This document shows positions 1-40,335 of a stretch of DNA of 64,000 nucleotides, in pieces (the first letter of the stretch is position 1; each line of letters starts with the position of its first letter). Both the position numbers and the translations under genes were made by a program. Under the pieces are notes generated by a model. It had not been told where the DNA came from, searched no databases, and worked only from the letters and a program-made list of their open reading frames with translations. Origin of the DNA: Escherichia coli (GTDB lineage Bacteria; Pseudomonadota; Gammaproteobacteria; Enterobacterales; Enterobacteriaceae); the NCBI RefSeq assembly GCF_022846255.1, contig NZ_AP025682.1, one strand, 5' to 3'.

Positions 1-918
1 CTCCACGTGCCAGTGGTTTCGGATTGCTGTGGCGAACTTCTCTGCGGTTAAATCAGCAGAACTGATATAATATCTGACCGTCATTTCTGGCTATTTCTTT
101 TGTTCTGCTATTATGGACCGAAAGGAGACTGCCACGCATAATTTCTTCAGTCCTTTCCATTCAAACGTGAAATCAATAAGTTCATCAGGGACATCGCAAA
201 CAATATGAAGACGGATTTCTTCTCTGCCGTGACTTTTTTCACTAATTGCGTAACTGTCATGCTCTGGATTATTCAATTCTTTCAGCGGAAATTTTTCCTC
301 GAAGGCTTTATTTAGCCGCCCCTGGTTTCCTTTTACAGCGAATAAATAATCACCTCCCTGTTTTTGTATCTTCTCTGCAATATCTTTCTGGCAACCCATC
401 GCATCAGTTGTGATGATTTTTCCTTTAATATCCAGCATGTTAAGAAGTTCAGGGATAGCTGTAATTTCATTGGATTTCTCATCCGTCCTGATCTGTCCGA
501 TGACCAGACTGTGCATTGTTGAGAACGCACTAATGACATGAATCGCTCCCCTGCGGCGACTCTTGTCATAAGAATGTCGGAGCGTTTTTCCATCAATTGC
601 AATAACGTCTTTATCATCTGAAGAATGGCAGTCACGCATCCAGTTAATAAAGCACTCGTGAAATTTTGCAGGACTGATACAGGATACAACTCTGGCAATG
701 GTATCGTGAACAGGAATACCATTTTCAAAATCACCATATTGCTTCAAAAAATCGAGATGTGTTTCCCCAAAATCCTCTATATCTTCCCAGCCTTCTGCAC
801 CAGAAATAACGGCACAAATAGTCAACAGTAGAATATCCGATAATTTATGTTCCACTTTCCAGGCTTGTCTGTAATCGGGGATAATAGAAATATGTTCCAT
901 CAATTTTTTAAGTACCAT
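1..918 (-). mobile_element. ISAs1-family (H-repeat-associated) transposase gene, disrupted: in-frame TAG at 91-93, homologous reading frame continues to the window edge
   Basis: 275-aa [29 protein letters not shown]... matches the N-terminal three-quarters of E. coli H-repeat/ISAs1 transposases. Reverse-complement of 1-90 continues in frame as [30 protein letters not shown] after the stop. Confidence 0.7.
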
Positions 919-1147
919 TTTGTTCTCCTTAATTATGTAAGGAGTATTTGATCATGTATAAGCAATAAAAAACAGCTTCAGGTAATGAGGAATATCTCAA
1001 TTTTTAAACATAAAATGCGAATTATTTAGTACAAAAAAGCAGCGTTACGTGATCTTTCCCTGACTGTGTAGGAAAACAGGTTTCCAAGCCCTTCCGAACC
1101 ATTCATGCCTGCAAACAAAAGCAGCTGCGGCGGCACCGCACTACCAC

Positions 1148-1468
1148 TTACTGTGACGTTATGCGCCCCGGACCACCGGCAGCAAGCGACGCCGCCGCAT
1201 CCTGAACTGCACCAGCCATATCCGAGATCCCTGCTGCTGCAGCGGCAGCCTGCGCAGCAGCTACTGCTGCTTTAACCAGACCTGACGGTTCCGGCAACGC
1301 ACCAAACAGGTCCGCCGCTGCCTGTTCTGCCATCTCCTCGGCGGCACCAGATACATCGGTTACGGCTGAACCTGTGCTCATACCGCCACTTTCGCCAGCT
1401 ATTGGTGGTGTGGTGATGACGGGTCCACCGTTTCCAGCTGGTTTGTTACCCGTAGATACAAAACTCAT
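1148..1468 (-). CDS. hypothetical small Ala/Gly-rich protein (106 aa), no recognisable domain
   Basis: ORF with an AGGA-containing putative RBS upstream of the ATG; low-complexity A/G-rich translation; GC-rich relative to AT-rich flanks; lies just downstream of a putative immunity gene. Confidence 0.3.
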
Positions 1469-1492
1469 GATATTTATTCCTTTAATATCGGA

Positions 1493-1864
1493 TTAGAATT
1501 TAGCGCCCGGCTGCCAGAAAAAATAAGAAATAACCCGCCACTGTCCATCTTTATAATGAAAAAAACATGTCAGATTTAAATCCCCCCGCAAATGCCAAAA
1601 CATTTCTTTGATGGGAATATTTCTGAATTCAGTATTCGTTGAGCGATAGGTGTTTTCAATTTCTATATAATACTCACCGACAAATTTATAACGAGGCTTT
1701 ATAAATTCATACGCTGGCTGACCATAGTTATTTAATAGAACATTCTCTTCAACTCCATTATACACACCACTCGCATTCAGATAAGCATGCCCAGGAATAT
1801 CAGACATGCTATTTTTCGCCCCACCCACTATCAAAAAAATTATCACAGCGTATATTAGTTTCAT
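1493..1864 (-). CDS. putative periplasmic immunity protein (signal peptide), partner of the upstream HExxH protein
   Basis: N-terminal hydrophobic signal-like segment MKLIYAVIIFLIVGGAKN; start overlaps the stop of the upstream gene by 4 nt (translational coupling); no recognised domain. Confidence 0.4.
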   Translation of the reverse strand: MKLIYAVIIFLIVGGAKNSMSDIPGHAYLNASGVYNGVEENVLLNNYGQPAYEFIKPRYKFVGEYYIEIENTYRSTNTEFRNIPIKEMFWHLRGDLNLTCFFHYKDGQWRVISYFFWQPGAKF

Positions 1865-2601
1865 TTTTTTACGCTTTTCACAAAAAAATTAGAACCCGGA
1901 ACCATTCTATTTAACCGCTCAATGACATTTCTCATATAACGAGAGCGCAGTTCCATACCAATATTCATTAACGCACTGGCGTCCCCGGAGAATGGTGTAG
2001 TTGCTTTATCTGCATCATCACTATAGTATTCATCAGCAAGATATCCAATAATATGCCCAAGCTCGTGAGACAGCCCTATTTGCTCATGGCAAACTTTTGA
2101 TGAGCCAAGACATTTAGCTGCTGCAACTATATCTTTAGAGTCAAGTTCAACGTATCGACTATTCCAGACAATGGAACTCTGTCGAAAACTATTTGGATCA
2201 TCATTATCAATTTTAAACACCACCACATCCCAATACCCATGACGATCAGTCTGAATTATTTCTATTGAGAAAGATAAATCCTTACCATTAAACTTACTGG
2301 CAAACTCAGACTTCCCAGAAACGGATAAAAAAATCTTATTATTCCATGTTTGATTAATGACAAAAATAACTTTCCCATGAAAGGCATTTTTCTCCAAATC
2401 TGTCCAGTCAGTTTTTGCATCCCATCTTTTTATCCAATTATATTTCCATCTCAGCAACAATGAGATTGCACCATTTTCACGGTCAATTCTTAAATCTCCC
2501 CAGGCATCATTGTCCCTGATATATCGTTTATCCAGCATTAAGTCGTCATAAGCATCGTATGCCTGCTGAATAGCTTCATCATGAGAGTCACCCATGTTCA
2601 C
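1861..2601 (-). CDS. putative zinc-metallopeptidase-like protein (HExxH motif), candidate T6SS effector
   Basis: 246-aa ORF with strong RBS (AAGGAGG) and motif SHELGHIIGYLADEY; no signal peptide; followed by an overlapping signal-peptide ORF; located in the effector-rich tail of the T6SS island. Confidence 0.4.
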   Translation of the reverse strand: MNMGDSHDEAIQQAYDAYDDLMLDKRYIRDNDAWGDLRIDRENGAISLLLRWKYNWIKRWDAKTDWTDLEKNAFHGKVIFVINQTWNNKIFLSVSGKSEFASKFNGKDLSFSIEIIQTDRHGYWDVVVFKIDNDDPNSFRQSSIVWNSRYVELDSKDIVAAAKCLGSSKVCHEQIGLSHELGHIIGYLADEYYSDDADKATTPFSGDASALMNIGMELRSRYMRNVIERLNRMVPGSNFFVKSVKK

Positions 2602-2801
2602 CTCCTTATATTGCTATATATCCAATAAACCTGAAGATGCTTGCTTACCCACCAACGCAGACGGGACCAAGGGTAGCCTGAAGTCAACAGATAGCAGTCA
2701 ACTTGAAGTTCATGGGGATATTTGTTTCCCCATCTACACGTTTATCGTCATATTTTTGTATAGCTATTCTCAGCATTCGTGGGTAGATTATTTTTTTCCA
2801 A

Positions 2802-2906
2802 CCGCAGCGCATCCACATACCGCCCCTCGCTGTTCTGCTGCCACAACCAGCCCTGCCCCTGCTGCGCCTGCGTTAACATTTTTGCTAGCCAGCACGGTCA
2901 CGGCAG
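2802..2906 (-). repeat. degenerate ~105-bp copy of the 3' end of tagF (direct repeat of 3902-4007)
   Basis: Read by eye: ccgcagcgcatccacataccgcccctcgctgttctgctgccacaaccagccctgcccctgctgcgcctgcg... aligns with 3902-4007 at roughly 90% identity; the copy lacks the tagF stop context and sits between two effector/immunity modules. Confidence 0.8.
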
Positions 2907-2924
2907 GCAATTCCATGACAGGTA

Positions 2925-3398
2925 CTACTCATCCGTACAACCCAGCCCCCGGCGCTGAACCACTTCACTGGCAAACGTAGCTCCGGTTTTTTTCATTATT
3001 CCTTTTTGTATTTTTTGCAGCGCGGGAAATGAGATTCTCCTGCATGAATCCTCTTCCCATATATCACCAGTTACAGGACTAACTGAAAATAGTCCCCACA
3101 CATCTGTCGCTCCGGCGGAAGGAGAATCATAACCTACCCCAAAACTAAAATACCCAGGATGATACAGGTTACCTTTTTTATCTTTCAGAGAACCGTCAAG
3201 AAAAAACCCAGACAATTCCACATTATATTTTTCATTTTTTAGTGAAAAAACCAATAATGCCTGCGCCTGTATTTCAGTAAGACCTGACTGGTTAACAGTC
3301 GTTAGATCAAACCGCGGCACATTCCTGATAAGAATTTCAGCACAACAATTCACGGACACGACCATGAAAAGCAATACTGATATTAATTTACAGGACAT
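2925..3398 (-). CDS. putative periplasmic immunity protein (signal peptide) for the upstream GH73-like protein
   Basis: N-terminal signal-like segment MSCKLISVLLFMVVSVNCCA; overlaps the upstream gene by 16 nt; no recognised domain. Confidence 0.4.
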   Translation of the reverse strand: MSCKLISVLLFMVVSVNCCAEILIRNVPRFDLTTVNQSGLTEIQAQALLVFSLKNEKYNVELSGFFLDGSLKDKKGNLYHPGYFSFGVGYDSPSAGATDVWGLFSVSPVTGDIWEEDSCRRISFPALQKIQKGIMKKTGATFASEVVQRRGLGCTDE

Positions 3399-3853
3399 GT
3401 TATTCTCCGCTTAACCATATTAATCACCCACACTAACTCACTAGCATAACCGGTATGGCCGCCATTACTGTTTTTACCTGAATTAAAACCAGAATCAATC
3501 AATGCCTGCGCAAATTGCTCCGGAGATTTTTTATTTCTGACCGCATTACCAAATCGGATTGCAAAGGACTTTCCGCTAGTTGAAAAAAAGGTATAAGTGG
3601 CAACCCACACTTGATTACTCCCCAGCGGGTGAACCTGTCCTGACTGTAAAGGTGCCGGACCATGCATGGAAAAGTAGTTATTGTATTCTGTCGCGATTCT
3701 ACCCTGCCCGTAAAAGGACTCCTTTGCAGCAAGCCCCAGGATATTTTCCACAGGCACATCAAGTTGCTTAGCGATTAATTCACATTCTTTCAGATATTGC
3801 TGTACAAACCTGACTGCACCAGTGTTATTACAGGCTTTATCATAAGACCCCAT
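3383..3853 (-). CDS. GH73-like (FlgJ-type) N-acetylglucosaminidase-like protein, candidate peptidoglycan-targeting T6SS effector
   Basis: 156 aa, no signal peptide, RBS AAGGAG; motif LGLAAKESFYGQG...YNNYFSMHG resembles the GH73 catalytic region (AQAALESGWG...NNLFGIK) recalled from memory; immediately downstream of tagF. Confidence 0.45.
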   Translation of the reverse strand: MGSYDKACNNTGAVRFVQQYLKECELIAKQLDVPVENILGLAAKESFYGQGRIATEYNNYFSMHGPAPLQSGQVHPLGSNQVWVATYTFFSTSGKSFAIRFGNAVRNKKSPEQFAQALIDSGFNSGKNSNGGHTGYASELVWVINMVKRRITCPVN

Positions 3854-3880
3854 GATTCACTACTCCTTGTCTGATTATTT

Positions 3881-4651
3881 TTAATGCGGCCGGATATCCA
3901 GCCGCAACGCATCCACATACCGCCCCTCGCTGTTCTGCTGCCAGAACCAGCCCTGCCCCTGCTGCGCCTGCGTCAGCATTTTGTCCGGCCAGCCCGGCCA
4001 CGGCAGGTGGCGCACACCGGGCAGTTCCACTACCGGCACGTCCGGCAGGCCGGTGAGTTCCCGGCTACGCTGCGGTACACGTCGTAAGCCGCGTAGCCAC
4101 TGCGCCCAGCGCGGCCCCGGTCGCCACATCGCCCAGAGCTGGTCTGTCTGCTCCGCCAGTCGACCGCAGCGTTCTGTCTGTGGTGAGACATGAGCTGCCG
4201 TCAACTGCGCCAGCCAGTACAGCCAGCCCTGTGTGTCATCCAGGCTCTCTTCCAGCCATTCCCGCCCGACACGCTGGTAAATCACCAGTGGCCACGGCCT
4301 GCCCGTACTGTCACGCGAGGCGGTCAGGACCCCGGTCAGCCACTCATCGCGCCCGCCAATGGGGAGAAATCCCGGCGACAGCACAAAACTCCACGGCAAT
4401 GGGTGGTGCTCCGGTAGTGCCGTTTTCTCACGTGGTGACAGGTGCATCCAGCCGTCATTTGTTCCGGCCTTCGCAGCATCCGTTCCTTCCGGCAGAACAA
4501 TATGCCGTCCCTGTCCCAGCCACGTTTGCTGGTTCAGCCACGCCTGCCACACCTGCCCTTCGTTCGCGCTCACTCGCCAGCGCACATAGTCCCGCTGGTC
4601 CGGCAGTCTGCCGAACATCGCCGGGGCCGATATCTCTGCCCGGCGCATCAC
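3881..4651 (-). CDS. tagF: T6SS-associated protein TagF (ImpM family)
   Basis: N-terminal FGRLPDQRDYVRW matches the TagF signature (FGKLPxxGDFVxR); W-rich, GC-rich ORF downstream of the tssM/tae4 block. True start may be the internal Met of AMFGRLP. Confidence 0.6.
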   Translation of the reverse strand: MMRRAEISAPAMFGRLPDQRDYVRWRVSANEGQVWQAWLNQQTWLGQGRHIVLPEGTDAAKAGTNDGWMHLSPREKTALPEHHPLPWSFVLSPGFLPIGGRDEWLTGVLTASRDSTGRPWPLVIYQRVGREWLEESLDDTQGWLYWLAQLTAAHVSPQTERCGRLAEQTDQLWAMWRPGPRWAQWLRGLRRVPQRSRELTGLPDVPVVELPGVRHLPWPGWPDKMLTQAQQGQGWFWQQNSEGRYVDALRLDIRPH

Positions 4652-4836
4652 AACGTCCTTACCGGACAGGTGAAGTTTTTCAGCAATTCCCGGTAATACA
4701 GAACATAATTCTTCATTTCAATAATAAAGTCAGATATCAGGATTAATTTTCTTCCACAGGAATCAGAGCATTTATAATAAAATCGCTCAGGCATCCCCCC
4801 AACAAAGAGAACAGGAATCAGCTTCCAATAAAATTG

Positions 4837-5313
4837 TTAATTCAGTTCCCAGAACCAGATTTCCTTGCAGCTAAAATAGCAATGTGAATGACATATAGCA
4901 CCTGTGGTAGAAGGCTCAATAAGATCTATATGACCGCCACCGTAACCCGTAATTTTCCAGAAAAAGACCACTCCTCTTTTATTACTGGTGTCTGTTTTAA
5001 ATTTTTCTGAGTCACACCAGATAACTGGTCTTCCAAAAACATCAGCTCGGGAAAGCTGATCTGCCAGTAATTTCGCACCGGTTTCTATTTTCTTCCCTTT
5101 CCAGTCACCACTTTTGATCGTCAGTCGCCCGTTAAAGCTGACGCCTGATTTAATCAGCGCCAGACTCATACGTGTGGCACAGGTATTTACATAACCAGCA
5201 TTTTGCTGTTGCAGTGCTTCATAGTTATAACCCACTTCACTGTACAAAACATCACCATCAATCTGAACTGATGAGTAATGGTTTTTTTTAAGTGTGAAAA
5301 ATGAAGGTTTCAT
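4837..5313 (-). CDS. tae4: Tae4-family peptidoglycan amidase effector
   Basis: 158 aa; motif NTCATRMSLALIKSG matches the Tae4 catalytic Cys region (NACPIRMSYVLN) and GGGHIDL the His region, by recall of Salmonella/Enterobacter Tae4; no signal peptide; start overlaps the stop of the upstream signal-peptide gene. Confidence 0.65.
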   Translation of the reverse strand: MKPSFFTLKKNHYSSVQIDGDVLYSEVGYNYEALQQQNAGYVNTCATRMSLALIKSGVSFNGRLTIKSGDWKGKKIETGAKLLADQLSRADVFGRPVIWCDSEKFKTDTSNKRGVVFFWKITGYGGGHIDLIEPSTTGAICHSHCYFSCKEIWFWELN

Positions 5314-6005
5314 TTATTATTTCCTTTATCACAGGAGTGTTTACTTAGTGCCTCAATAATAATATTTGCAGCCCGTTCATTCAGTTTATCTGACGTTTTT
5401 TTTCTGAAATACCAGTAAATAATCTCATCCAGTGTAACTGTTTTAATCGTTTTATAATCGCACCATGTTTTTCTTTCCGTGGCATCTTCTATACCCAAAA
5501 GATAGATTTTCGCATTAAGCCTATCCTGCCTGTTATCTGACTGCCAGAAGCGGAAAAAATCATCTCCGTTCAGATCGAACGCGCCAGAGGTCAGGTGTGA
5601 AACAGATGAATGCCGGGGAGATTTTTTTTCCGGTGATGCCATATCCGGGCAGGGAAACAGCCTGACCATCGCTTGTTCAATCAGAGTTGAAGCTCGCATA
5701 TTCATATCGTTAACCGACTGCTGATTAAGATATGTCAGTACCGATGAATAAAGTTCTATTTCATTAATCTTATTATATCCACACCAGGTTTTACTTTCTG
5801 TCGCATCACTCACACCAAGGACATACATCAGAACATTTTCTTTTTCCTGTGACGTTCCACGAGCATAAAATGACAAAAATTCCTGCGCACTGAGATTAAT
5901 ATAATCGGGGTCAATAGTTCCTGTGTTTTTTCTGATATCAGCAAAAACATTTCCTGACATGGCATATAACAAAAAAATAATAAAAAAACGCGTATATTGT
6001 TGCAT
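5310..6005 (-). CDS. tai4: Tai4-like periplasmic immunity protein, internally tandem-duplicated (two homologous domains)
   Basis: Signal peptide MQQYTRFFIIFLLYAMSGNVFA; the two halves are visibly homologous (…VLMYVLGVSDATESKTWCGYNKI… versus …KIYLLGIEDATERKTWCDYKTI…); 4-nt overlap with tae4. Confidence 0.5.
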   Translation of the reverse strand: MQQYTRFFIIFLLYAMSGNVFADIRKNTGTIDPDYINLSAQEFLSFYARGTSQEKENVLMYVLGVSDATESKTWCGYNKINEIELYSSVLTYLNQQSVNDMNMRASTLIEQAMVRLFPCPDMASPEKKSPRHSSVSHLTSGAFDLNGDDFFRFWQSDNRQDRLNAKIYLLGIEDATERKTWCDYKTIKTVTLDEIIYWYFRKKTSDKLNERAANIIIEALSKHSCDKGNNK

Positions 6006-6251
6006 ATCATGCTTCCTGAATCACGGTAGTAGGATGGTCGCTATAACGTCGGTTTAAGAAAGTTTATAGTTTTGTTGCGTCGTTGCCCTGCCATCTCAGT
6101 ATATAAGTGACATTAATGGTGCCTTTTTGCTCACCTGGTGTAACGGCCTGTTTTAGCATACAACTCCACGTCAAGACATCCGTGAATGCAGCCTTTAGCA
6201 TAGTCACATGGGTCCGGTAGTCTGCCAACGATACTGCCGCCGCCCGGCGTA

Positions 6252-9200
6252 TCACAGCGCTCGCTCCGGGCAGGCGAAGCGTTGTAATAGTCCGCGATCC
6301 ACTGGGTCAAAATCCCGTCCGGCGGTGATTTCCAGTATCACCCGCCGCCCGTCAAAGCTGTACTCCACCTGCTGTGTTCCCCGTACCGCCGTTTCTTGCG
6401 CTTTTCCCGCATCCAGCAGGTGAAACAGCGCCCACGGTCCATTAGTCAGCAGCGTCGAGGTGTCCTGGCGGATGCGCGGGCTGGCGGTTATTTCCGCCAT
6501 TGAGCCGTTGCGCGGACCCGGCCAGTTCACTTTCAGCGGCCTGACCGGGCCGTGAGCGTAACGCAGTACCTGGCCGTCAATGTCAATCACCAGTTCGGTG
6601 ATGGCCGGGTCCATATCCACGACGCGGACCTGCATCGCCCATGAGAACTTTTTCCCTCCGTCGCCGTTAAAAAACACGCTGCGGATCTGTTTCGCCTCCT
6701 GAAACGGCGTCAGGTCTGGACCCTGTAAGGTCATGTTGCCTTCGGTCGGTTTGTAGCGCCACGGGTTGCTGGCGGTATCCGCCAGTGGGGCCAGTTGCTT
6801 CGTCCAGAAGGCATCCAGCACGCCGCCGCTGGCAAAGATACGGTTAAAATCGTCCGCGCTGACCTCCTGCGGGCTGTCGGTGAAGGGGTAGCGCCCGTCG
6901 ATGGCGTCGCGGCACTCATCACCGATCACCGCCTCCATCTGCGCGTTCAGCACTTCACCGGTGCCGGCGTTGATTTTTCGCGTTCCCTGCTGCGTGAGAT
7001 CCAGCAGAATATTTTTCAGCGGCGCGGGCAGTTTTGCCGCCTCCAGTTGCAGTTTATCCGCCGCAGAAATGCGCCCCGGCAGAGTGCTCGCAGCCAGCGC
7101 ACTGTCGGCAATGGTGAGCTGGGTGTAGTACTCATTGAGCATCGTCAGCAGCGAATTTAATTGCGGCACGCCGCCGCCCTGCCCGCTGTCCGTCTGCCCG
7201 GAAACCACTTCCCGCAGGGCGGCGAAACGGTCATCCACCAGTGATTTTTCCAGCCGCTCTTCCGGGTGAATGTCCTGCAACAGCTTCGCCGTCTGCACCG
7301 CTTTTCCCGCATTGCCGGAGAGCCGGTCCTGCGCGCGCTGGGCCATCTGCTTTTGTCTGGCCTGCGCATTCAGCGGCGGCACCAGCGTGGTCTGCTCCAC
7401 CACCGCTTTACTCAGGCGCATCAGCGGGGAATCCGGCGAGGCCAGAGTACGCAGCACCTGAAGGTCATACGCTAGTCCAGGGCTACCGTCCTCCCCGGCG
7501 CTGTTGATGCTGTGAATGCTTGCCAGAAAATCCTGCCATCGGCGAGCATATTCAGCCAGGTACAGACGACGTACCTCACGGGTAACCGGGAGTTCCTGCC
7601 CCGGCAACTGGCTCATCACAATATCAGTCGTTTTTTTTTGCGCACTTTCCCGGCCCATCACCCAGGCGTCGTCCGCTGATGCGGCGGCGACAAACTCCGA
7701 CAGCCGTTTGTCGAACAGTTCCCGGTAGCCTTCGCGGGTGAAGATGCCGGGCACGCCCCTGTCCAGCGGCGCGCCATCCGTGCGGACAAAAACTGTTCCC
7801 GCATCCGCGCCCACAGCGCGAACCAGCGAAAACTCCTGCGGTGCTTCGCTCTCCATGGAAGCCAGGGCTCGAGTGTAGATACGCTCAGTGCTGGTATGGC
7901 CGTCAAGGAAGGCCCGCGCCTGGCGGATCAGCCCCTCATCTTTTTCCCAGGGCGAATGCACCACGCGGCTGCCGTCAAACAGGGCGTCAATATGCTCCAG
8001 CACGGCTGCGCGACCGCCAAACTCCGCTACGCTGTCGCGGTTGTCCAGATCGTTCAGCACCCAGGCGTGGATCTCCGCCGCGTTGTATTTGTCCTCGTGG
8101 TCCTTATCGAGGTTCAGCAGCAGATAAACATGCAGGGCGTCATAGGCGGCTTTGCTGTCCTGACGCGCAATCGCATCTGAAAGCACGTATTCCATTCGTT
8201 TCACCAGCGGAGGGAGCAGTAGCTGGTCCAGCAGGCGGTCATACAGGGATGCGACACTCTCCATCACCGGCGGGACGCTGTAAAGACCATAACGCCAGGC
8301 CAGCGGCGGCGAGTCCGGGTCCAGCCCCGGCCAGGCAGAGAGCGCCCGCGCCTGGTTCAGCAGGGCCGGAACAGGCTGCATAGCAGGTTTTCCGGTATAG
8401 GCTTTGACATCACCATCCAGTTGGGTCGTCCGGCTGGCGATTTCATTCAGATAACCGCTGTTACCCTGCTGGCTACCCTGCATTCCCTGCCACAACCAGA
8501 AAGCCAGCGCCAATACCAGCAGATGCCCGCCGGTACGCAGCAGGCGATAACGCCAGGCCCATTGAAGATTCGGCTCCACCAGGTGCGCTTCGCGGAAGAT
8601 AAACTGCGTCAGTAGATCGTGCAGGAAATAGCTGCGGTTGCCGTCCGGCAGGGTATGGGATGGGGAATCCGCCTTCCCTTTGATCGCCCGGACAAAACGC
8701 TGCCAGATGCCCGTCTGATCGGCCACCGCGTCTGCCTGCGCCTGCGCGGCACTGGTGAAAAATACGCCGCGCAGGGTGTTGTTAAGCTGGGTAGCATCAA
8801 ATTTTGAATCGAGGAAAATCTGTTCAATAGCTTCCAGCAGCGGCGCACCCAGCGCGGCAAATTCACGCGGGAAGCGGTAGAGCCGCTGACGGCTTTTAAG
8901 GTCATATTCTTCCTGCAACCGGGTATCCAGCCCCTGATCCAGCCGCTGTGTCAGGTTTGCCAGTTCCCGGCCACAGAGCGCATGCAGCGACTGCGGATCG
9001 CTGGCGTGACGCCTGCGGCTGTAAGGCAGGGTGAAGCCCCAGACCTGGGCTCGCAGGTGACTGGTCAACCCACGGAAATACTCCGTAAAGCCCGGCAGCA
9101 GATCCATCTTGGTGACAACCAGATAGACCGGAAAACGAATGCCCAGCGTCTCCCGCAGTTCCGCCAGCCGCGCACGCAGAGCTGCACAGGCAGCCAGCCG

Positions 9201-10118
9201 TTCCGCCGGGGACTGCGCGGTCAGATCCGCCACGTTCAGCGTCAGGATCACGCCGTTGAGCGGTGCGCCGGGGCGGTGTTTACGCAGCAGTCCCAGAAAC
9301 CCCTGCCACTCCCCGGCGTTGCGCTGGGTCGCGCTGATTTCGCCACCGTCATCGTGGCGAGCATAGCGCCCGGCGGTGTCAATAAGCACTGCTTCGTTGG
9401 TAAACCACCAGTCGCAGTGCAGCGTGCCGCCGCCCGGCACGGTGAGAATATGCGCGGTTTGCTCCATCTGCTCCGCCAGCGGAAACTGTAGCCCGGTGTT
9501 AAGCAGCGCGGTGGTTTTACCATCGCCGGGGCTGCCGATAACCATAAACCACGGCAGCTCGTACAGAAAACGCTTTCCTTCCAGGACTTTTCGCCAGCCA
9601 GGAAGATCCACACGCAGTTGTTTCAGTTGCCGGATGGCGCGGTTGACAATATGGCTGACGGTACGCAGGTCGGCTTTAATTTCCCCCTCCACCGGTACGT
9701 CTTCCCCACGCGGATGCAGGAAACGGCGCAGCAGTTGTTCATCCAGACGCAGCGCCCGCCACAGCCGGTACAGGCCATACAGCGCATAAGTCAGCAGGAT
9801 CAGACCGATAAGCGTCAGACGCAGCCACAGCGGCGCAAATGGATGAACATCACCGAGGGACAGCAGGGGTGAAACAAAACCGATGACCAGGCACAGAACC
9901 GTCACGCCAATGATGCTCATCGACCAGTTAACCAGCCACAGTGCGAGGAACATCAGTAACAGAACGATGGTGACTACCCGACTTCCCACAGACGCGAGCG
10001 GATGCACGGTGTCAAACGCCACCAGCGGCCCGATAAACCAGACCAGCAGCGCCAGTACCGCCACGCCGACAACAGCCAGCGCGCGGCGGGAAAACAGCAG
10101 ACTGAGAAATTTTTGCAT
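6252..10118 (-). CDS. tssM: T6SS membrane core protein TssM (IcmF family)
   Basis: 1288 aa; N-terminal transmembrane segments, Walker A GSPGDGKTT, large periplasmic C-terminal region; typical IcmF architecture. Confidence 0.9.
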   Translation of the reverse strand: MQKFLSLLFSRRALAVVGVAVLALLVWFIGPLVAFDTVHPLASVGSRVVTIVLLLMFLALWLVNWSMSIIGVTVLCLVIGFVSPLLSLGDVHPFAPLWLRLTLIGLILLTYALYGLYRLWRALRLDEQLLRRFLHPRGEDVPVEGEIKADLRTVSHIVNRAIRQLKQLRVDLPGWRKVLEGKRFLYELPWFMVIGSPGDGKTTALLNTGLQFPLAEQMEQTAHILTVPGGGTLHCDWWFTNEAVLIDTAGRYARHDDGGEISATQRNAGEWQGFLGLLRKHRPGAPLNGVILTLNVADLTAQSPAERLAACAALRARLAELRETLGIRFPVYLVVTKMDLLPGFTEYFRGLTSHLRAQVWGFTLPYSRRRHASDPQSLHALCGRELANLTQRLDQGLDTRLQEEYDLKSRQRLYRFPREFAALGAPLLEAIEQIFLDSKFDATQLNNTLRGVFFTSAAQAQADAVADQTGIWQRFVRAIKGKADSPSHTLPDGNRSYFLHDLLTQFIFREAHLVEPNLQWAWRYRLLRTGGHLLVLALAFWLWQGMQGSQQGNSGYLNEIASRTTQLDGDVKAYTGKPAMQPVPALLNQARALSAWPGLDPDSPPLAWRYGLYSVPPVMESVASLYDRLLDQLLLPPLVKRMEYVLSDAIARQDSKAAYDALHVYLLLNLDKDHEDKYNAAEIHAWVLNDLDNRDSVAEFGGRAAVLEHIDALFDGSRVVHSPWEKDEGLIRQARAFLDGHTSTERIYTRALASMESEAPQEFSLVRAVGADAGTVFVRTDGAPLDRGVPGIFTREGYRELFDKRLSEFVAAASADDAWVMGRESAQKKTTDIVMSQLPGQELPVTREVRRLYLAEYARRWQDFLASIHSINSAGEDGSPGLAYDLQVLRTLASPDSPLMRLSKAVVEQTTLVPPLNAQARQKQMAQRAQDRLSGNAGKAVQTAKLLQDIHPEERLEKSLVDDRFAALREVVSGQTDSGQGGGVPQLNSLLTMLNEYYTQLTIADSALAASTLPGRISAADKLQLEAAKLPAPLKNILLDLTQQGTRKINAGTGEVLNAQMEAVIGDECRDAIDGRYPFTDSPQEVSADDFNRIFASGGVLDAFWTKQLAPLADTASNPWRYKPTEGNMTLQGPDLTPFQEAKQIRSVFFNGDGGKKFSWAMQVRVVDMDPAITELVIDIDGQVLRYAHGPVRPLKVNWPGPRNGSMAEITASPRIRQDTSTLLTNGPWALFHLLDAGKAQETAVRGTQQVEYSFDGRRVILEITAGRDFDPVDRGLLQRFACPERAL

Positions 10119-10445
10119 TATTGTTCAGAACTCCACATTGTAATCATCAACAATAAAAGGCCACAAGCTGAAAATGTTTTCCCGATTCAGCACAAAAAAA
10201 TAGATGGCGATCCGAAACATCACTAAACCTGAAAAATAAAATTTCGCAGCATCATTTTATTTACATCATCACGCAACAACGTTGTCATTATAAGGTTTAT
10301 GCTCAATATTTTAATTTATATACAAAATCATTCGAGTTGCATCAAGGCGGCAAGCGAGAGGATCCCGAATCATTTATTCCGGTAAGTGACTCGGGTGAAC
10401 GAGTGCAGTCAACGCAGAGGCAACCTGAAGGATAAGGTGTATACA

Positions 10446-10901
10446 TCAAAATTCTCTGGATAGAATAATATAGCCATTGAATCTTACGGAACACTCATTT
10501 TCATTAATAAGGCCGGATGCAATAAAAACATCTTTCCCTCTGTCATTGTTAATATAGGTATATTTTGCCACAATAGACTTGGCATGATTTTCATAGTAGC
10601 TATCAAAATACGATTTTTCATCTAACATTGCCTTCTTATTTCTGGCTTTGTCCTTCTCATAATCAATCTTAGCCAGAGACTCTGCATAAAACTTAGACAC
10701 AGGAGAAACATCAAGAACTTCTACCCTTGTTTTATCTCTTAAAATAGTAGAAGAATTTATATTCAAATCACTTTTCATTGCATCAAATAACGACAACTCT
10801 ATTGAGGCTCCAACCGTAGCGCAACCATCATTTTGTGCATATGAAATTGCAGGTATGCCAGCTAACAGGCAGATTATTACCTTGAACATATTAGTCCTCA
10901 A
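10446..10901 (-). CDS. putative periplasmic immunity protein (Tldi-like) for the upstream L,D-transpeptidase-like effector
   Basis: 151 aa with signal peptide MRTNMFKVIICLLAGIPAISYA; AT-rich; overlaps the effector gene end by 11 nt. Confidence 0.45.
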   Translation of the reverse strand: MRTNMFKVIICLLAGIPAISYAQNDGCATVGASIELSLFDAMKSDLNINSSTILRDKTRVEVLDVSPVSKFYAESLAKIDYEKDKARNKKAMLDEKSYFDSYYENHAKSIVAKYTYINNDRGKDVFIASGLINENECSVRFNGYIILSREF

Positions 10902-11259
10902 CCACTAATATTTTATCAGTACTGGCAGCAATAACCTTGCGATAAGGTAAATCCAGAATTATACAGCCATCAGAGGCTTCTCCTGGATGGGCTGAACTCT
11001 CTCCGTGTATCATGAAACCGTCACGCCCGCACATTTGATTTTCGGGGTAAGGCGTGAGCCTCATCGTCCATGCTCTTGTTCTGGCATGAAAAAATGCAAG
11101 TCCAATTGTATATGTACCTCTTGGCAATGGTCCCTTATCTCTTACACACTCATTAACAGAGTCATCTTTAAAACCCGGTCTGCCAGAATATCTGGCATTG
11201 AACTGATAGCTACCATTTAAATAAAATGAACGTGCATTAATTTTGTATACCCAAGGCAT
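10891..11259 (-). CDS. Tlde1-like (DUF2778, L,D-transpeptidase-fold) T6SS effector
   Basis: 122 aa; motifs KGPLPRGTYTIG and FMIHGESSAHPGEASDGCIIL match the His-x(14-17)-S-x-G-C signature described for Tlde1/YkuD-like effectors; no signal peptide. Confidence 0.55.
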   Translation of the reverse strand: MPWVYKINARSFYLNGSYQFNARYSGRPGFKDDSVNECVRDKGPLPRGTYTIGLAFFHARTRAWTMRLTPYPENQMCGRDGFMIHGESSAHPGEASDGCIILDLPYRKVIAASTDKILVVED

Positions 11260-11350
11260 TACACAATCTCCTTTTTGTTAAAAAATAATAGTCAGATCAG
11301 AACACCATATTTTATTGTTAGTTTTCTGACCTAACCATAGTCATATTAAT

Positions 11351-12667
11351 TCACTCCACCACCAGAATTTCCACCCGACGGTTCTGCGCCCGTCCGGTTT
11401 TAGTGCGGTTATCGGTCACCGGTACGGTATCTCCTTTCCCGACAACCCGGATCCGGCGGGCCGGAATACCATCGGACGTCAGCAGTGAAGCCACTTCCGC
11501 CGCCCGTTTTTCCGACAATACCTGGTTGGACGGGAATTCAGCGGAGTGGATCGGCTGGCTGTCCGTGTGGCCGGTCACCGTCACCGCGCCCCCCACACGC
11601 GCAATCTCACGCGCGGCCTTGTCAATCACCGGGCGCAGCGCATCATTCACGGTTTTCTGCCCCGGTATAAACATCGTATCGCCACGAAAAATTACACGGC
11701 TGTGATGGTCATCTTCCTCCACCGTCAGCAGGCCACGGGCGATTTCGTTCGCCAGCAGGATTTTCAACCGCAGTTTATGCACCGGAACGGGTGGCGGAGG
11801 AAGATTTTTACCAATGGCGTCGATACGCTGTTGTACGGTTTCGGTGGCGAGGTTCATCCGGTGGCTGTAAAGGCCAAACAGCGTCAGCATCACCAGCAGG
11901 GCGATTCCGGCGCTCAGCCAGACCGGCACCCGGCGCATCCGCCGCATTCGCCCACTGACGGCACCGGCAAAACCCGGCGAGAGCGTCGGCGTGATCGGAT
12001 CGCGACGCTGGACCAGTTGAGTCAGCAGTTGCTGGCGGATATCGTCCAGTTGTTTACGCCCGTCAGGCCGTACACTGTAGCGGCCTTCAAAACCCAGTCC
12101 CAGAATGTGGTAAATGATTTCCAGTACATCGCTGTGCTCCTGGAAGCTGGCGGCCAGACGCCCGATTATCTGAAACAGCTTGATGCCGCCTTCACTTTCG
12201 CCATGAAAAGTCACCAGCAGGCTCTTCCCGGCCCAGACACCGCGTCGCCCCCAGACGGTGTTGTTGGCAGCTTCATCCAGCGCCGTGCACACGCAGTAAC
12301 GTACCGCCAGCACATGTTCGCGGCGCAGGTTTGCCTGGTCGCACAGCGTCTGATACCGGCGGACTTCACGCTCCAGTAGGGCGCGATAATGTTCGACAAA
12401 ACCAGGGGAAAGTTCACGGGGCATTTGCGCCAGCGCGCATAACAGAGGGCTGGCCGCCGCCAGAAGAGGATTCACAGCAGCAGTGATCTCAGCCAAGCGG
12501 AGCTTCAAATCTGGCCCGTCTTCAACCACCATTTTTATATCTTCCCTGCGAAGGCTGTCCTGGACGAGCGTATCGTAACCGTCATTATCAGGCGACCTTG
12601 TTCCCCTCATTGAAGGCTGTAATTGCAGGGTATTCACCGCAGGTTGCGTCAGAATATCGTCGGTCAT
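11351..12667 (-). CDS. tssL: TssL (DotU family) with C-terminal OmpA-like peptidoglycan-binding domain
   Basis: 438 aa; DotU-like N-terminal region, one transmembrane segment (VWLSAGIALLVMLTLFGLY), C-terminal OmpA/MotB-like motif GHTDSQ...NRRVEILV. Confidence 0.8.
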   Translation of the reverse strand: MTDDILTQPAVNTLQLQPSMRGTRSPDNDGYDTLVQDSLRREDIKMVVEDGPDLKLRLAEITAAVNPLLAAASPLLCALAQMPRELSPGFVEHYRALLEREVRRYQTLCDQANLRREHVLAVRYCVCTALDEAANNTVWGRRGVWAGKSLLVTFHGESEGGIKLFQIIGRLAASFQEHSDVLEIIYHILGLGFEGRYSVRPDGRKQLDDIRQQLLTQLVQRRDPITPTLSPGFAGAVSGRMRRMRRVPVWLSAGIALLVMLTLFGLYSHRMNLATETVQQRIDAIGKNLPPPPVPVHKLRLKILLANEIARGLLTVEEDDHHSRVIFRGDTMFIPGQKTVNDALRPVIDKAAREIARVGGAVTVTGHTDSQPIHSAEFPSNQVLSEKRAAEVASLLTSDGIPARRIRVVGKGDTVPVTDNRTKTGRAQNRRVEILVVE

Positions 12668-14007
12668 TTATCGCGAACTCCCCACAGCTCCAGCTCCAGC
12701 CCTGGAAACTCTCCGGCGGTATGCATTGCCATGCCACCATAGCGGGCGATATGTTCCCACAACACGCCGTCGCGGCGGATGTCGTAATAGATGTAACCGG
12801 ACTGGAACGGGATCTGACGCGGTGGCACTGGCAGCACCTGTAGAACAAGACCAGGAAGGTGCGAGCGAATCAGTTCCGGCAGGCGTTCTGATGGCCCTAT
12901 TTTGGTCTGAGCCGAAAAATGTTGTAGTAAGGTGTCGGCGGACATCTGTGCCTTCACCGCCAATACTAACGAGCTGAAATCTGACAGTTCGGTAGGTTCA
13001 ACCACCGCATTGAGAATACCGTAAGTTCCCTCTTCCAGAGGGATTCGCTGCGCCCCACGTATTAGCACAGCATTCAGCAGATACTGAACCTCGTCCACCA
13101 CCGATTTCAGCCCGGCATAGGGCGTCAGGTGCTTATATTCTTTATATTCTTCCGGACGACGTGTTTGCGGACGCACGTAGGTAGAGAGTTCTCCGGCCAG
13201 TGCGCAGAGGTTACGATAGAGTACTTCAGGCGATAGCGGCGTTTTCGACATATGGATCAATAAGGGGCCGAAACGATTAAGAACTTGCAGAAGCAGGTAA
13301 TCCGACACTTCCGCCGCTTCATGACCGTGTTTGTCGCTCCCCGTCAATCGTTCCGCCAGCGAATCTGCACGCATTTTTATCAGATCGTTAATCCACGACA
13401 GCCAGGTACATATCAGCGTACTGGCCTGGTAGTTCGCCACTGGCGGGATCAACTCTTTGTCTATATCGACCCGACCATCGGGATGCAGCGCCGTGATGCG
13501 CGTCAGCGGCAGGCCGATCCACGCGTCTGTCACCGCCTTTTCCGGTAACAGTCGCAAGCGCAGGTGGCTAAGTTGCAGCAGTTGCGCGCCTCGCCCCAGC
13601 GAATTGGCATCACGGATTTCACTTTCATGTACCGAAAAACGTGCCAGTGATTCAGGGTTATTGTCGAAACTGGTTTCTTCACTGTTCGGCGTACGTATTG
13701 GCACAGCCAGATAAATCAACTGGTTAAGATGTTCTGGAAGGATGGTCAGAGGCGGCGGGAGTGGTGTATGACCCGGCGCATTAAAAGGTGTACCGTCAGC
13801 AAATACCCCGGAAGCCTTCGTAAGTACCAGTTTTCCGATGTTCAGCGCCTCACTACCAATACCATACTCATTGAAGCCCCAGTAAAAAGGTGAAAGAGGC
13901 AAACTGCGATAATGAATGACATGTTCCAGATAGCGTTCCTGCTGCTGAAACATCTGTGGCAACAAAAATTGTCCTTCACTCCAGACCACCCGGTTATTCC
14001 AACTCAT
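12664..14007 (-). CDS. tssK: T6SS baseplate protein TssK
   Basis: 447 aa; N-terminus MSWNNRVVWSEGQFLLPQMFQQQERY typical of TssK; 4-nt overlap with tssL. Confidence 0.85.
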   Translation of the reverse strand: MSWNNRVVWSEGQFLLPQMFQQQERYLEHVIHYRSLPLSPFYWGFNEYGIGSEALNIGKLVLTKASGVFADGTPFNAPGHTPLPPPLTILPEHLNQLIYLAVPIRTPNSEETSFDNNPESLARFSVHESEIRDANSLGRGAQLLQLSHLRLRLLPEKAVTDAWIGLPLTRITALHPDGRVDIDKELIPPVANYQASTLICTWLSWINDLIKMRADSLAERLTGSDKHGHEAAEVSDYLLLQVLNRFGPLLIHMSKTPLSPEVLYRNLCALAGELSTYVRPQTRRPEEYKEYKHLTPYAGLKSVVDEVQYLLNAVLIRGAQRIPLEEGTYGILNAVVEPTELSDFSSLVLAVKAQMSADTLLQHFSAQTKIGPSERLPELIRSHLPGLVLQVLPVPPRQIPFQSGYIYYDIRRDGVLWEHIARYGGMAMHTAGEFPGLELELWGVRDK

Positions 14008-28482: not shown

Positions 28483-28559
28483 TGGCGGAACGGACGGGAC
28501 TCGAACCCGCGACCCCCTGCGTGACAGGCAGGTATTCTAACCGACTGAACTACCGCTCC
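28483..28559 (-). tRNA. aspV: tRNA-Asp (GUC)
   Basis: Reverse complement reads GGAGCGGTAGTTCAGTCGGTTAGAATACCTGCCTGTCACGCAGGGGGTCGCGGGTTCGAGTCCCGTCCGTTCCGCCA; adjacent to dnaQ as in E. coli. Confidence 0.92.
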
Positions 28560-36706: not shown

Positions 36707-36783
36707 TGGCGGAACGGACGGGACTCGAACCCGCGACCCCCTGCGTGACAGGCAGGTATTCTAACCGACTGAACTACCGCTCC
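36707..36783 (-). tRNA. aspU: tRNA-Asp (GUC), distal tRNA of rrnH
   Basis: Sequence identical to the aspV copy at 28483-28559. Confidence 0.92.
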
Positions 36784-36835
36784 ACCGAATTCTTTTACAA
36801 CCACCGGTTTTATGACCGGCTTACTGCTTAATTTG

Positions 36836-36955
36836 ATGCCTGGCAGTTCCCTACTCTCGCATGGGGAGACCCCACACTACCATCGGCGCTACGGCGTTTC
36901 ACTTCTGAGTTCGGCATGGGGTCAGGTGGGACCACCGCGCTACGGCCGCCAGGCA
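36836..36955 (-). rRNA. rrfH: 5S ribosomal RNA
   Basis: 120 nt; reverse complement begins TGCCTGGCGGCCGTAGCGCGGTGGTCCCACCTGACCCCATGCCGAACTC (E. coli 5S). Confidence 0.95.
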
Positions 36956-37054
36956 AATTCTGTTTTATCAACACGTCTCGTTATGACCTGTCGATTTAAT
37001 CTGTATCAGGCTGAAAATCTTCTCTCTATCCGCCAAAACATCTTCGGCGTTGTA

Positions 37055-39957
<2,903 letters not shown>

Positions 39958-40140
39958 TCACAACCCGAAGATGTTTCTTGCGATCCATCATCGTGTTGCG
40001 AAAATTTGAGAGACTCACGAACAACTTTCATTGTTCAGTGTTTCAATTTTCAGCTTGATCCAGATTTTTAAAGAGCAAAACTTCGCAGTGAACCTTTGCA
40101 GGTACACTCTGAAGTATTTTTTATTTAATCACTACAGAGA

Positions 40141-40216
40141 TGGTGGAGCTATGCGGGATCGAACCGCAGACCTCCTGCGTGCAAAGCAGGCGCTCTCCCA
40201 GCTGAGCTATAGCCCC
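40141..40216 (-). tRNA. alaV: tRNA-Ala (UGC), spacer tRNA
   Basis: Reverse complement reads GGGGCTATAGCTCAGCTGGGAGAGCGCCTGCTTTGCACGCAGGAGGTCTGCGGTTCGATCCCGCATAGCTCCACCA. Confidence 0.92.
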
Positions 40217-40258
40217 ATAACATGTAGTTAAAACCTCTTCAAATTTGCGGTGCAAATT

Positions 40259-40335
<77 letters not shown>

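Follow-up and report, generated by a model that had tools for sequence, protein, structure and literature searches.

The Ala/Gly-rich open reading frame at the tail of an Escherichia coli T6SS-1 island is most probably a remnant of vgrG, frameshifted and then truncated by an insertion sequence

Introduction

At the tail of a type VI secretion system (T6SS) island of Escherichia coli, next to an insertion sequence (IS), lies a short Ala/Gly-rich open reading frame that stands out from its surroundings by a high GC content. The question is whether this ORF is a gene for a small protein, a piece of a larger gene or no gene at all. A preliminary description of the locus had offered two explanations. 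First, the ORF could be a fragment of a larger gene that was truncated by the IS; second, it could encode a small secreted or adaptor protein. We analysed the ORF together with its neighbourhood in a window of 64,000 nt, by which we mean the whole stretch of DNA under analysis. We find that the ORF derives from a known gene, of which it is a broken copy, in an island of a known type; it is not a new small protein. Most probably (we would put the probability at roughly 0.93) it is the pseudogene remnant of vgrG (tssI), that is, the front end of the T6SS spike gene, which was hit by a frameshift and afterwards truncated by the IS.

Results

The ORF and its predicted product

The ORF and the elements upstream of it are located as follows.

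1148..1468, minus strand: the 106-aa ORF with an ATG start, corresponding to vgrG codons 1-101 followed by five codons read out of frame (RITSQ) and by the stop codon TAA at 1148-1150
1477..1482, minus strand: the Shine–Dalgarno-like AAGGAA of vgrG, intact, with 9 nt between AGGA and ATG, identical in strains E04 and AR_0077
1493..1864, minus strand: an immunity-like gene of 123 aa without Pfam or NCBIfam match, whose E04 homologue (WP_052431198.1) is a hypothetical protein in RefSeq
1861..2601, minus strand: a gene for a 246-aa HExxH protein (HELGH motif) with a weak match to Peptidase_M64 (E = 0.011), which is below the Pfam cut-off

The general features that had been ascribed to the ORF, namely 106 aa, an Ala/Gly-rich and acidic composition, a high GC content and a plausible ribosome binding site (RBS), were all found again. 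The product contains 26.4% Ala, 15.1% Gly and 9.4% Ser, and its acidic character results from nine Asp and Glu residues versus three Lys and Arg residues. The GC content of the ORF is 59%; in windows of 200 nt it amounts to 0.61-0.62 across the ORF and to 0.32-0.40 on either side. The values for the three codon positions (GC1/GC2/GC3) are 0.70/0.64/0.44, and the high GC content is largely explained by the GCN and GGN codons in this frame. The coding strand reads TTAAAGGAATAAATATC-ATG at the start codon, with AGGA 9 nt before the ATG, and 24 nt separate the stop codon of the 123-aa upstream gene from this ATG. The placement between an immunity-like gene (1493..1864) and an ISAs1 element (transposase ORF at 91..918) is likewise correct. 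In a scan of window positions 900-2800 no promoter or terminator exceeded the shuffle expectation.

The 106-aa product matched no Pfam or NCBIfam family at E <= 0.1. A signal peptide, a transmembrane-like segment or a hydrophobic N-terminus were not found in it; the maximum of the Kyte–Doolittle profile (19-aa window) is 1.49. The AlphaFold2 model has a pLDDT of 53 and a pTM of 0.24 and contains no confident compact fold; helices are predicted for residues 33-56, 61-78 and 85-96, all with low confidence. At a pLDDT of 53 a fold search from the model was not warranted. Neither the Pfam and NCBIfam scans nor the model revealed one of the recognised T6SS adaptor folds or families (DUF1795/Eag, DUF4123/Tap, DUF2169).

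The ORF is the start of vgrG

Window positions 1000-1600 were compared by megablast with 5,426 complete E. coli genomes. The first search gave 5,234 records because 62 nt of the IS end were part of the query; with the IS excluded, 53 genomes match. The near-full-length matches (at least 87% of the query), 23 in number, start at window position 1060. In all 23 cases the match falls on the upstream hypothetical gene and on a feature annotated either as "type VI secretion system Vgr family protein" or as a partial pseudogene of the "phage late control D" type.

The DNA from 1063 to 1500 is about 99% identical to the start of the intact vgrG of strain E04, which encodes 737 aa, and to the vgrG copy of AR_0077. 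From the RBS through codon 135 the window differs from these two by two substitutions and one missing G and is otherwise identical to them; at about 1063 the homology stops. At the protein level, residues 1-101 differ from the E04 VgrG (WP_088144525.1, 737 aa) at a single residue. In intact islands the sequence does belong to a longer ORF, as had been suspected, and forms the start of the 737-aa vgrG.

By this nucleotide homology the ORF uses the same start codon and the same frame as vgrG. Its position is conserved as well: tagF and the effector/immunity cassettes precede it, and it stands at the far end of the T6SS island inserted at aspV. In addition, it carries inactivating lesions: a 1-nt deletion in a run of five G and the truncation at the IS end. 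The window keeps only codons 1-135 of vgrG, of which codons 1-101 are in frame.

In the intact homologue Pfam identifies Phage_GPD (residues 125-433), Phage_base_V (the OB-fold, residues 488-555) and Gp5_trimer_C (the gp5-like beta-helix, residues 572-679). A functional gp27-like hub was not found here, as the 106-aa product has no Pfam match and the vgrG DNA of the window ends, out of frame, at codon 135. The same holds for the OB-fold and the gp5-like C-terminal beta-helix, which carries PAAR and effectors, as from about 1063 the corresponding DNA is replaced by the IS. We infer that the remnant has lost the spike function. Since the RBS and the operon context are intact, the remnant may still be transcribed and translated; the product, if made, may be a non-functional and largely unstructured peptide. 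For equivalent remnants in related genomes the NCBI PGAP annotation already has pseudogene entries, either incomplete Vgr or "phage late control D".

A single missing G ends the ORF

The first lesion and its consequences map to the following positions.

1166..1169, minus strand: the frameshift site, with C4 in the window (G4 on the coding strand) versus G5 in intact vgrG alleles, changing GGTCCGGGGGCGC to GGTCCGGGGCGC
1064..1147, minus strand: the out-of-frame continuation of vgrG, about codons 108-135, with the beginning of the gp27-like Phage_GPD domain
1026..1136, minus strand: a mechanically called 36-aa ORF, in which the displaced VgrG frame runs into the IS end

The missing G is found at alignment column 332; the frame shifts at codon 102 and reaches the stop codon at 1148. 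In comparison with the E04 protein this deletion explains both the 106-aa ORF and the 36-aa ORF downstream of it. The proposal that the IS truncated a larger gene is thus right as far as the origin is concerned, since vgrG codons 1-101 plus five frameshifted codons are present and the gene is cut by the IS at about 1063, but it does not account for the end of the ORF: the stop codon at 1148 lies 85-100 nt before the IS junction and stems from the deletion in the G run, not from the IS.

Exactly the same 106-aa product is found on 20 public contigs. Ten of these were fetched (L013-L022), and all ten have the G4 allele; eight of the ten share an identical junction of 37 nt between vgrG and the IS. 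The agreement of eight independent contigs makes a sequencing error (for G4) or an assembly artefact (for the junction) unlikely. One Logan contig, L016, shows the G4 frameshift without the IS, and its vgrG continues for 317 codons or more. The frameshift is therefore not tied to the IS event and, in the order that we infer, probably preceded it.

The frameshift is situated almost exactly at the boundary between an N-terminal extension (see below) and the canonical VgrG body. Another lesion at this place was seen in contig L025 (GCA_902827765.1, at about 6290), where a different 1-nt deletion (G5-CGC to G6-C) affects the same 13-nt sequence GGTCCGGGGGCGC and the product (P0018) ends with ...GGPGGITSQ; this deletion sits in a vgrG duplicate that is already truncated. 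A 106-aa variant encoded on contig L024 (P0002) was considered as an independent recurrence of the frameshift and rejected, because nearly every gene of this contig is fragmented, which indicates an error-prone assembly. Further truncated proteins in the databases result from frameshifts within the stretch coding for poly-Ala. The region may be prone to slippage; the two deletions could reflect a hot spot or a coincidence.

The IS and its junction with vgrG

Two features describe the second lesion.

1..1063, minus strand: ISEc1 (ISAs1 family, "H-repeat"), running off the window start, with 98.5% identity to annotated copies over 1-1062
91..918, minus strand: the ISAs1-family transposase ORF (NCBIfam NF033564, E = 1e-91; Pfam DDE_Tnp_1_assoc and DDE_Tnp_1)

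The assignment to the ISAs1 family follows from the DDE transposase and from the DNA identity with ISEc1 up to the terminus. The IS terminus ...GATCTTTCCCTGA abuts vgrG at 1062-1064, and the A at 1063 can be assigned to either sequence. The element had been called a remnant, but a truncation is not visible; the IS runs off the window start. What it does carry is a nonsense codon in the transposase gene, E276* (GAA to TAA, window 91-93), compared with an intact 378-aa ISEc1 copy; beyond this codon the frame is open to the window edge. The copy is probably immobile by itself.

In the complete E. coli genomes the junction between vgrG and ISEc1 was not found, all matches starting at window position 1060, and an exact-match scan of the GTDB representative genomes for the 37-nt junction gave 0 matches. 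We considered two alternatives for how the junction could have arisen: a simple insertion of the IS, or a deletion adjacent to the IS, about 7.2 kb long, in which the remainder of vgrG was lost together with eagR and rhs. In E04 the island ends beside yafV with an ISEc1 in the same orientation, at a distance of about 7.2 kb from vgrG codon 135, and degraded islands, too, retain an ISAs1 fragment beside yafV. The layout of E04 fits the deletion; with the other IS end outside the window, the junction is compatible with either event. The ISEc1 of the window is only 97.1% identical to the resident copy of E04 and is not demonstrably the same copy.

A single contig crosses the IS, the metagenome contig L013. 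At 11698-13123 the same junction and the IS are followed by 1.1 kb from another Rhs/SymE locus, which strain 2014C-3338 has at 4.47 Mb, and by a further ISEc1 copy; the 22 mismatches between contig and window all fall inside the IS. This contig may represent a real IS-mediated rearrangement joining two Rhs loci, or a collapsed or chimeric assembly. Because of the latter possibility it was left out of the judgement on insertion versus deletion.

The island and the proposed order of events

The gene vgrG closes the E. coli T6SS-1/SPI-6-type cluster inserted at tRNA-Asp (aspV). Intact islands have on this strand the order tssM, Tai/Tae4, tagF, effector/immunity cassettes, vgrG (737 aa), eagR (DcrB/DUF1795), PAAR-Rhs, orphan Rhs bits, ISEc1 and yafV. 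In the window, the loss of one G from the G5 run at codon 102 shifts the frame and creates the 106-aa ORF. In what was probably a second step, an ISEc1 end was joined to codon 135, and the gp27-like, OB-fold and gp5 beta-helix parts are absent from this place.

The order tagF, 244-aa HExxH protein, 123-aa protein, vgrG, DcrB-related protein and RHS is common to the strains E04, 2014C-3338, HCP5S3_I2, LHM10-1 and 06-00048. In E04 the gene for a DcrB-related (Eag-type) chaperone and then the PAAR-Rhs gene follow 3' of vgrG, and the 123-aa and 244-aa genes and tagF are located 5' of it. The tRNA-Asp gene of the window is found at 28483-28559 with dnaQ/rnhA beyond it; it was called aspV by comparison of the gene order with AR_0077. 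A second tRNA-Asp together with tRNA-Ala and tRNA-Ile marks an rRNA operon at 36707-40335, which we take to be rrnH (K-12 map). The window as a whole is an ordinary E. coli-type chromosome around the T6SS-1 island.

Directly 5' of vgrG, the genes for the 246-aa and the 123-aa protein overlap by 4 nt; both products are hypothetical proteins in RefSeq. Diverged versions (233 aa and 128 aa) hold the same slot in other strains. Because of this shared slot the two genes are likely a metallopeptidase effector/immunity pair of a polymorphic family, with the HExxH protein as the likely metallopeptidase-type T6SS effector. Candidate effectors of the Peptidase_M64 type have been reported in Salmonella SPI-6 (PMC10469887).

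Further upstream the 3' end of tagF is present twice, as a direct repeat of 111 nt (90% identity) at 2797-2907 and 3897-4007. The repeats bracket a cassette of a Tge2-like glucosaminidase (3383-3853, minus strand) and a Tgi2PP-type immunity gene (2925-3398, minus strand). E04 and AR_0077 appear to be without this cassette, as window positions 1060-12000 match them in two pieces that together cover 83% of this 12-kb query. The doubling of the tagF end has the appearance of a scar that recombination left when the cassette was inserted; in other strains RefSeq lists the equivalent duplicate as a partial TagF pseudogene.

Other copies of the vgrG 5' end were also seen. A vgrG 5' fragment of 258 codons, followed by a second pair of HExxH effector and immunity genes and then by a full vgrG, is present in L002 (5638-6411), L005 (2638-3411) and L025 (6001-6899). 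These strains seem to use vgrG 5' DNA again as a flank for recombination by which effector/immunity cassettes are stacked, in the manner of orphan Rhs-CT arrays. Strain CFSAN064036 and about 27 other complete genomes (L010, 5000-5071) have only the first 71-72 nt of vgrG (24 codons, MSFVSTGNK...TTPPIA), fused to an Rhs fragment. The aspV island of this type is heavily degraded, with a partial tssA, a partial vgrG and an ISAs1 fragment beside yafV. In the database protein P0054 a similar vgrG stump is fused to the C-terminus of a fimbrial usher.

The N-terminal extension and other readings of the ORF

The alignment of solved VgrG structures with the intact E. coli protein begins only at about residue 98-111; residue 13 of P. 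aeruginosa VgrG1, for example, corresponds to residue 111. With the structures beginning there and Phage_GPD at residue 125, residues 1-100 constitute an N-terminal extension. The 106-aa ORF resembles a low-complexity small protein because its in-frame part is this Ala/Gly-rich extension of about 100 residues.

Seven E. coli alleles of the extension contain no indels. Their dN/dS is 0.41 for codons 1-45 and 0.20 for codons 46-100, compared with 0.06-0.07 for the VgrG body, and the variable sites in codons 46-100 are distributed 7/4/19 over the three codon positions. The N-termini of Salmonella VgrG proteins align in frame with 60-85% identity and two conserved blocks, and their length differences are in frame. 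A profile of the extension found only 29 proteins among 1.84 billion cluster representatives, all of them short N-terminal fragments or truncated proteins (46-288 aa), and no distant relatives were detected in this search. In a separate search, the matches that bear a name come from Escherichia, Shigella, Salmonella and Pseudocitrobacter and are called VgrG, partial. The extension is restricted to the Escherichia/Salmonella VgrG of this cluster type and is more weakly constrained than the body. The predicted model suggests that it is probably disordered or helical. For the Salmonella protein VgrS it has been reported that the full-length protein was insoluble and that residues 1-80 were removed as "a region of predicted disorder" for crystallisation (bioRxiv 10.1101/2024.12.20.629533).

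Could the ORF nevertheless be a genuine small gene, selected in its 106-aa form, whose product is secreted or serves the T6SS island as an adaptor or chaperone? Its RBS and operon position are intact, it holds precisely the complete extension module, and the product is the same on the 20 contigs. However, its last five residues are frameshift read-through, and in 5/5 full-length alleles examined the sequence is the in-frame start of a 737-aa VgrG; in 23/23 complete genomes with near-full-length matches it is annotated as part of vgrG or of a vgrG pseudogene. Variants of 99-106 aa ending with ITSQ and a stop codon occur on diverged backgrounds (P0003, P0018), but P0018 belongs to the vgrG duplicate that was already truncated and the further variant P0002 comes from the error-riddled contig. 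As for a secreted or adaptor function, the absence of a signal peptide or transmembrane-like stretch, the lack of Pfam, NCBIfam or distant homologues and the low model scores (pLDDT 53, pTM 0.24) speak against it, and every relative is a VgrG N-terminus or a broken VgrG, including 29/29 profile matches that are N-terminal fragments or truncated proteins. We regard a small protein gene as very unlikely.

A related thought is that the extension is an autonomous functional module, for example occupying the Hcp tube or the gp27 cavity or regulating spike loading, that the -1 frameshifts at GGTCCGGGGGCGC are recurrent and possibly selected as a switch turning the spike off, and that the ORF is the retained product. 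The dN/dS of 0.2-0.4, the two different -1 events within the same 13 nt and the kept RBS are consistent with such a module, to which we attach a very low probability.

It is extremely improbable that the ORF is non-coding and merely arose by chance, or as an out-of-frame shadow, in GC-rich DNA. Low-complexity GC-rich composition lengthens random ORFs, and there are indeed overlapping ORFs on both strands (1105..1275, plus; 1261..1356, minus; 1374..1496, plus). The frame of the 106-aa ORF, however, is the authentic vgrG frame and is annotated as such in every homologous genome examined. Purifying selection and a third-position bias are apparent in this frame, GC1 > GC2 > GC3 holds, and the length differences between the homologues in Salmonella are in frame. 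Moreover, the corresponding start codon has been used to express the Salmonella VgrS of 729 aa (bioRxiv 10.1101/2024.12.20.629533).

Finally, a functional split gene, in which extension and VgrG body are two polypeptides and the body re-initiates at the GTG of codon 111 or the ATG of codon 122 and continues past a simple IS insertion or comes from another locus, can practically be dismissed: L016 has the frameshift without the IS and the gene caller started its downstream part at M122, but in the window ISEc1 follows after codon 135 and no body can be made here, a start at M122 would drop the residues that align to the start of P. aeruginosa VgrG1, and codons 111 and 122 are not preceded by a clear Shine–Dalgarno-like motif.

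Discussion

In annotations the 106-aa ORF should appear as a vgrG pseudogene, frameshifted and truncated by ISEc1, rather than as a small hypothetical protein. With this assignment an otherwise complete T6SS-1 cluster is left without its only linked spike gene, and the linkage to the eagR chaperone gene and the PAAR-Rhs effector gene is gone as well. The remaining T6SS-1 core ORFs of the window are as long as in the intact cluster, and a second vgrG was not found within the island or the window. To fire, the T6SS would therefore need a VgrG encoded elsewhere. With the linked spike lost, the T6SS-1 of this strain is probably disarmed, unless a VgrG from elsewhere substitutes for it.

The closest known counterpart is the E. 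coli T6SS-1 VgrG of E04 (WP_088144525.1), with which the window shares the first 101 codons (one amino acid difference), about 99% DNA identity over 1063-1500 and the upstream neighbours. In contrast to the E04 gene, the copy in the window is -1 frameshifted at codon 102, ends at codon 135 at ISEc1 and lacks Phage_GPD, Phage_base_V and Gp5_trimer_C.

The partial vgrG copies of AR_0077 and PapRG-06-5, annotated as "phage late control D family protein, incomplete", are also 5' remnants at the same island position, and the AR_0077 copy is 99.5% identical to window positions 1064-1468. The way in which the gene was broken is different: remnants of the AR_0077, PapRG-06-5 and CFSAN064036 types end after 258 or 24 codons by recombination with an effector/immunity cassette or an Rhs fragment, whereas the remnant in the window ends by the frameshift and the ISEc1 junction.

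ISEc1/H-repeat elements are known to be associated with Rhs loci. The copy in the window resembles them in its DNA (98.5% identity) and agrees with the E04 copy in orientation and in its position at the island tail; it differs by the nonsense codon at residue 276 and by its neighbour, which is vgrG and not a remnant of Rhs.

The closest solved structure is that of the orthologous SPI-6 spike of Salmonella Typhimurium, VgrS/VgrG (STM0289, SL1344_0284; PDB 9MLP), to which residues 89-731 of the E04 protein align with 1363 bits. Like the E. coli gene, the Salmonella VgrG N-termini bear the same extension with the same conserved blocks. The authors of the VgrS study give no function to this extension (bioRxiv 10.1101/2024.12.20.629533), and the Salmonella gene is intact, whereas the E. 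coli window retains only a remnant of its counterpart.
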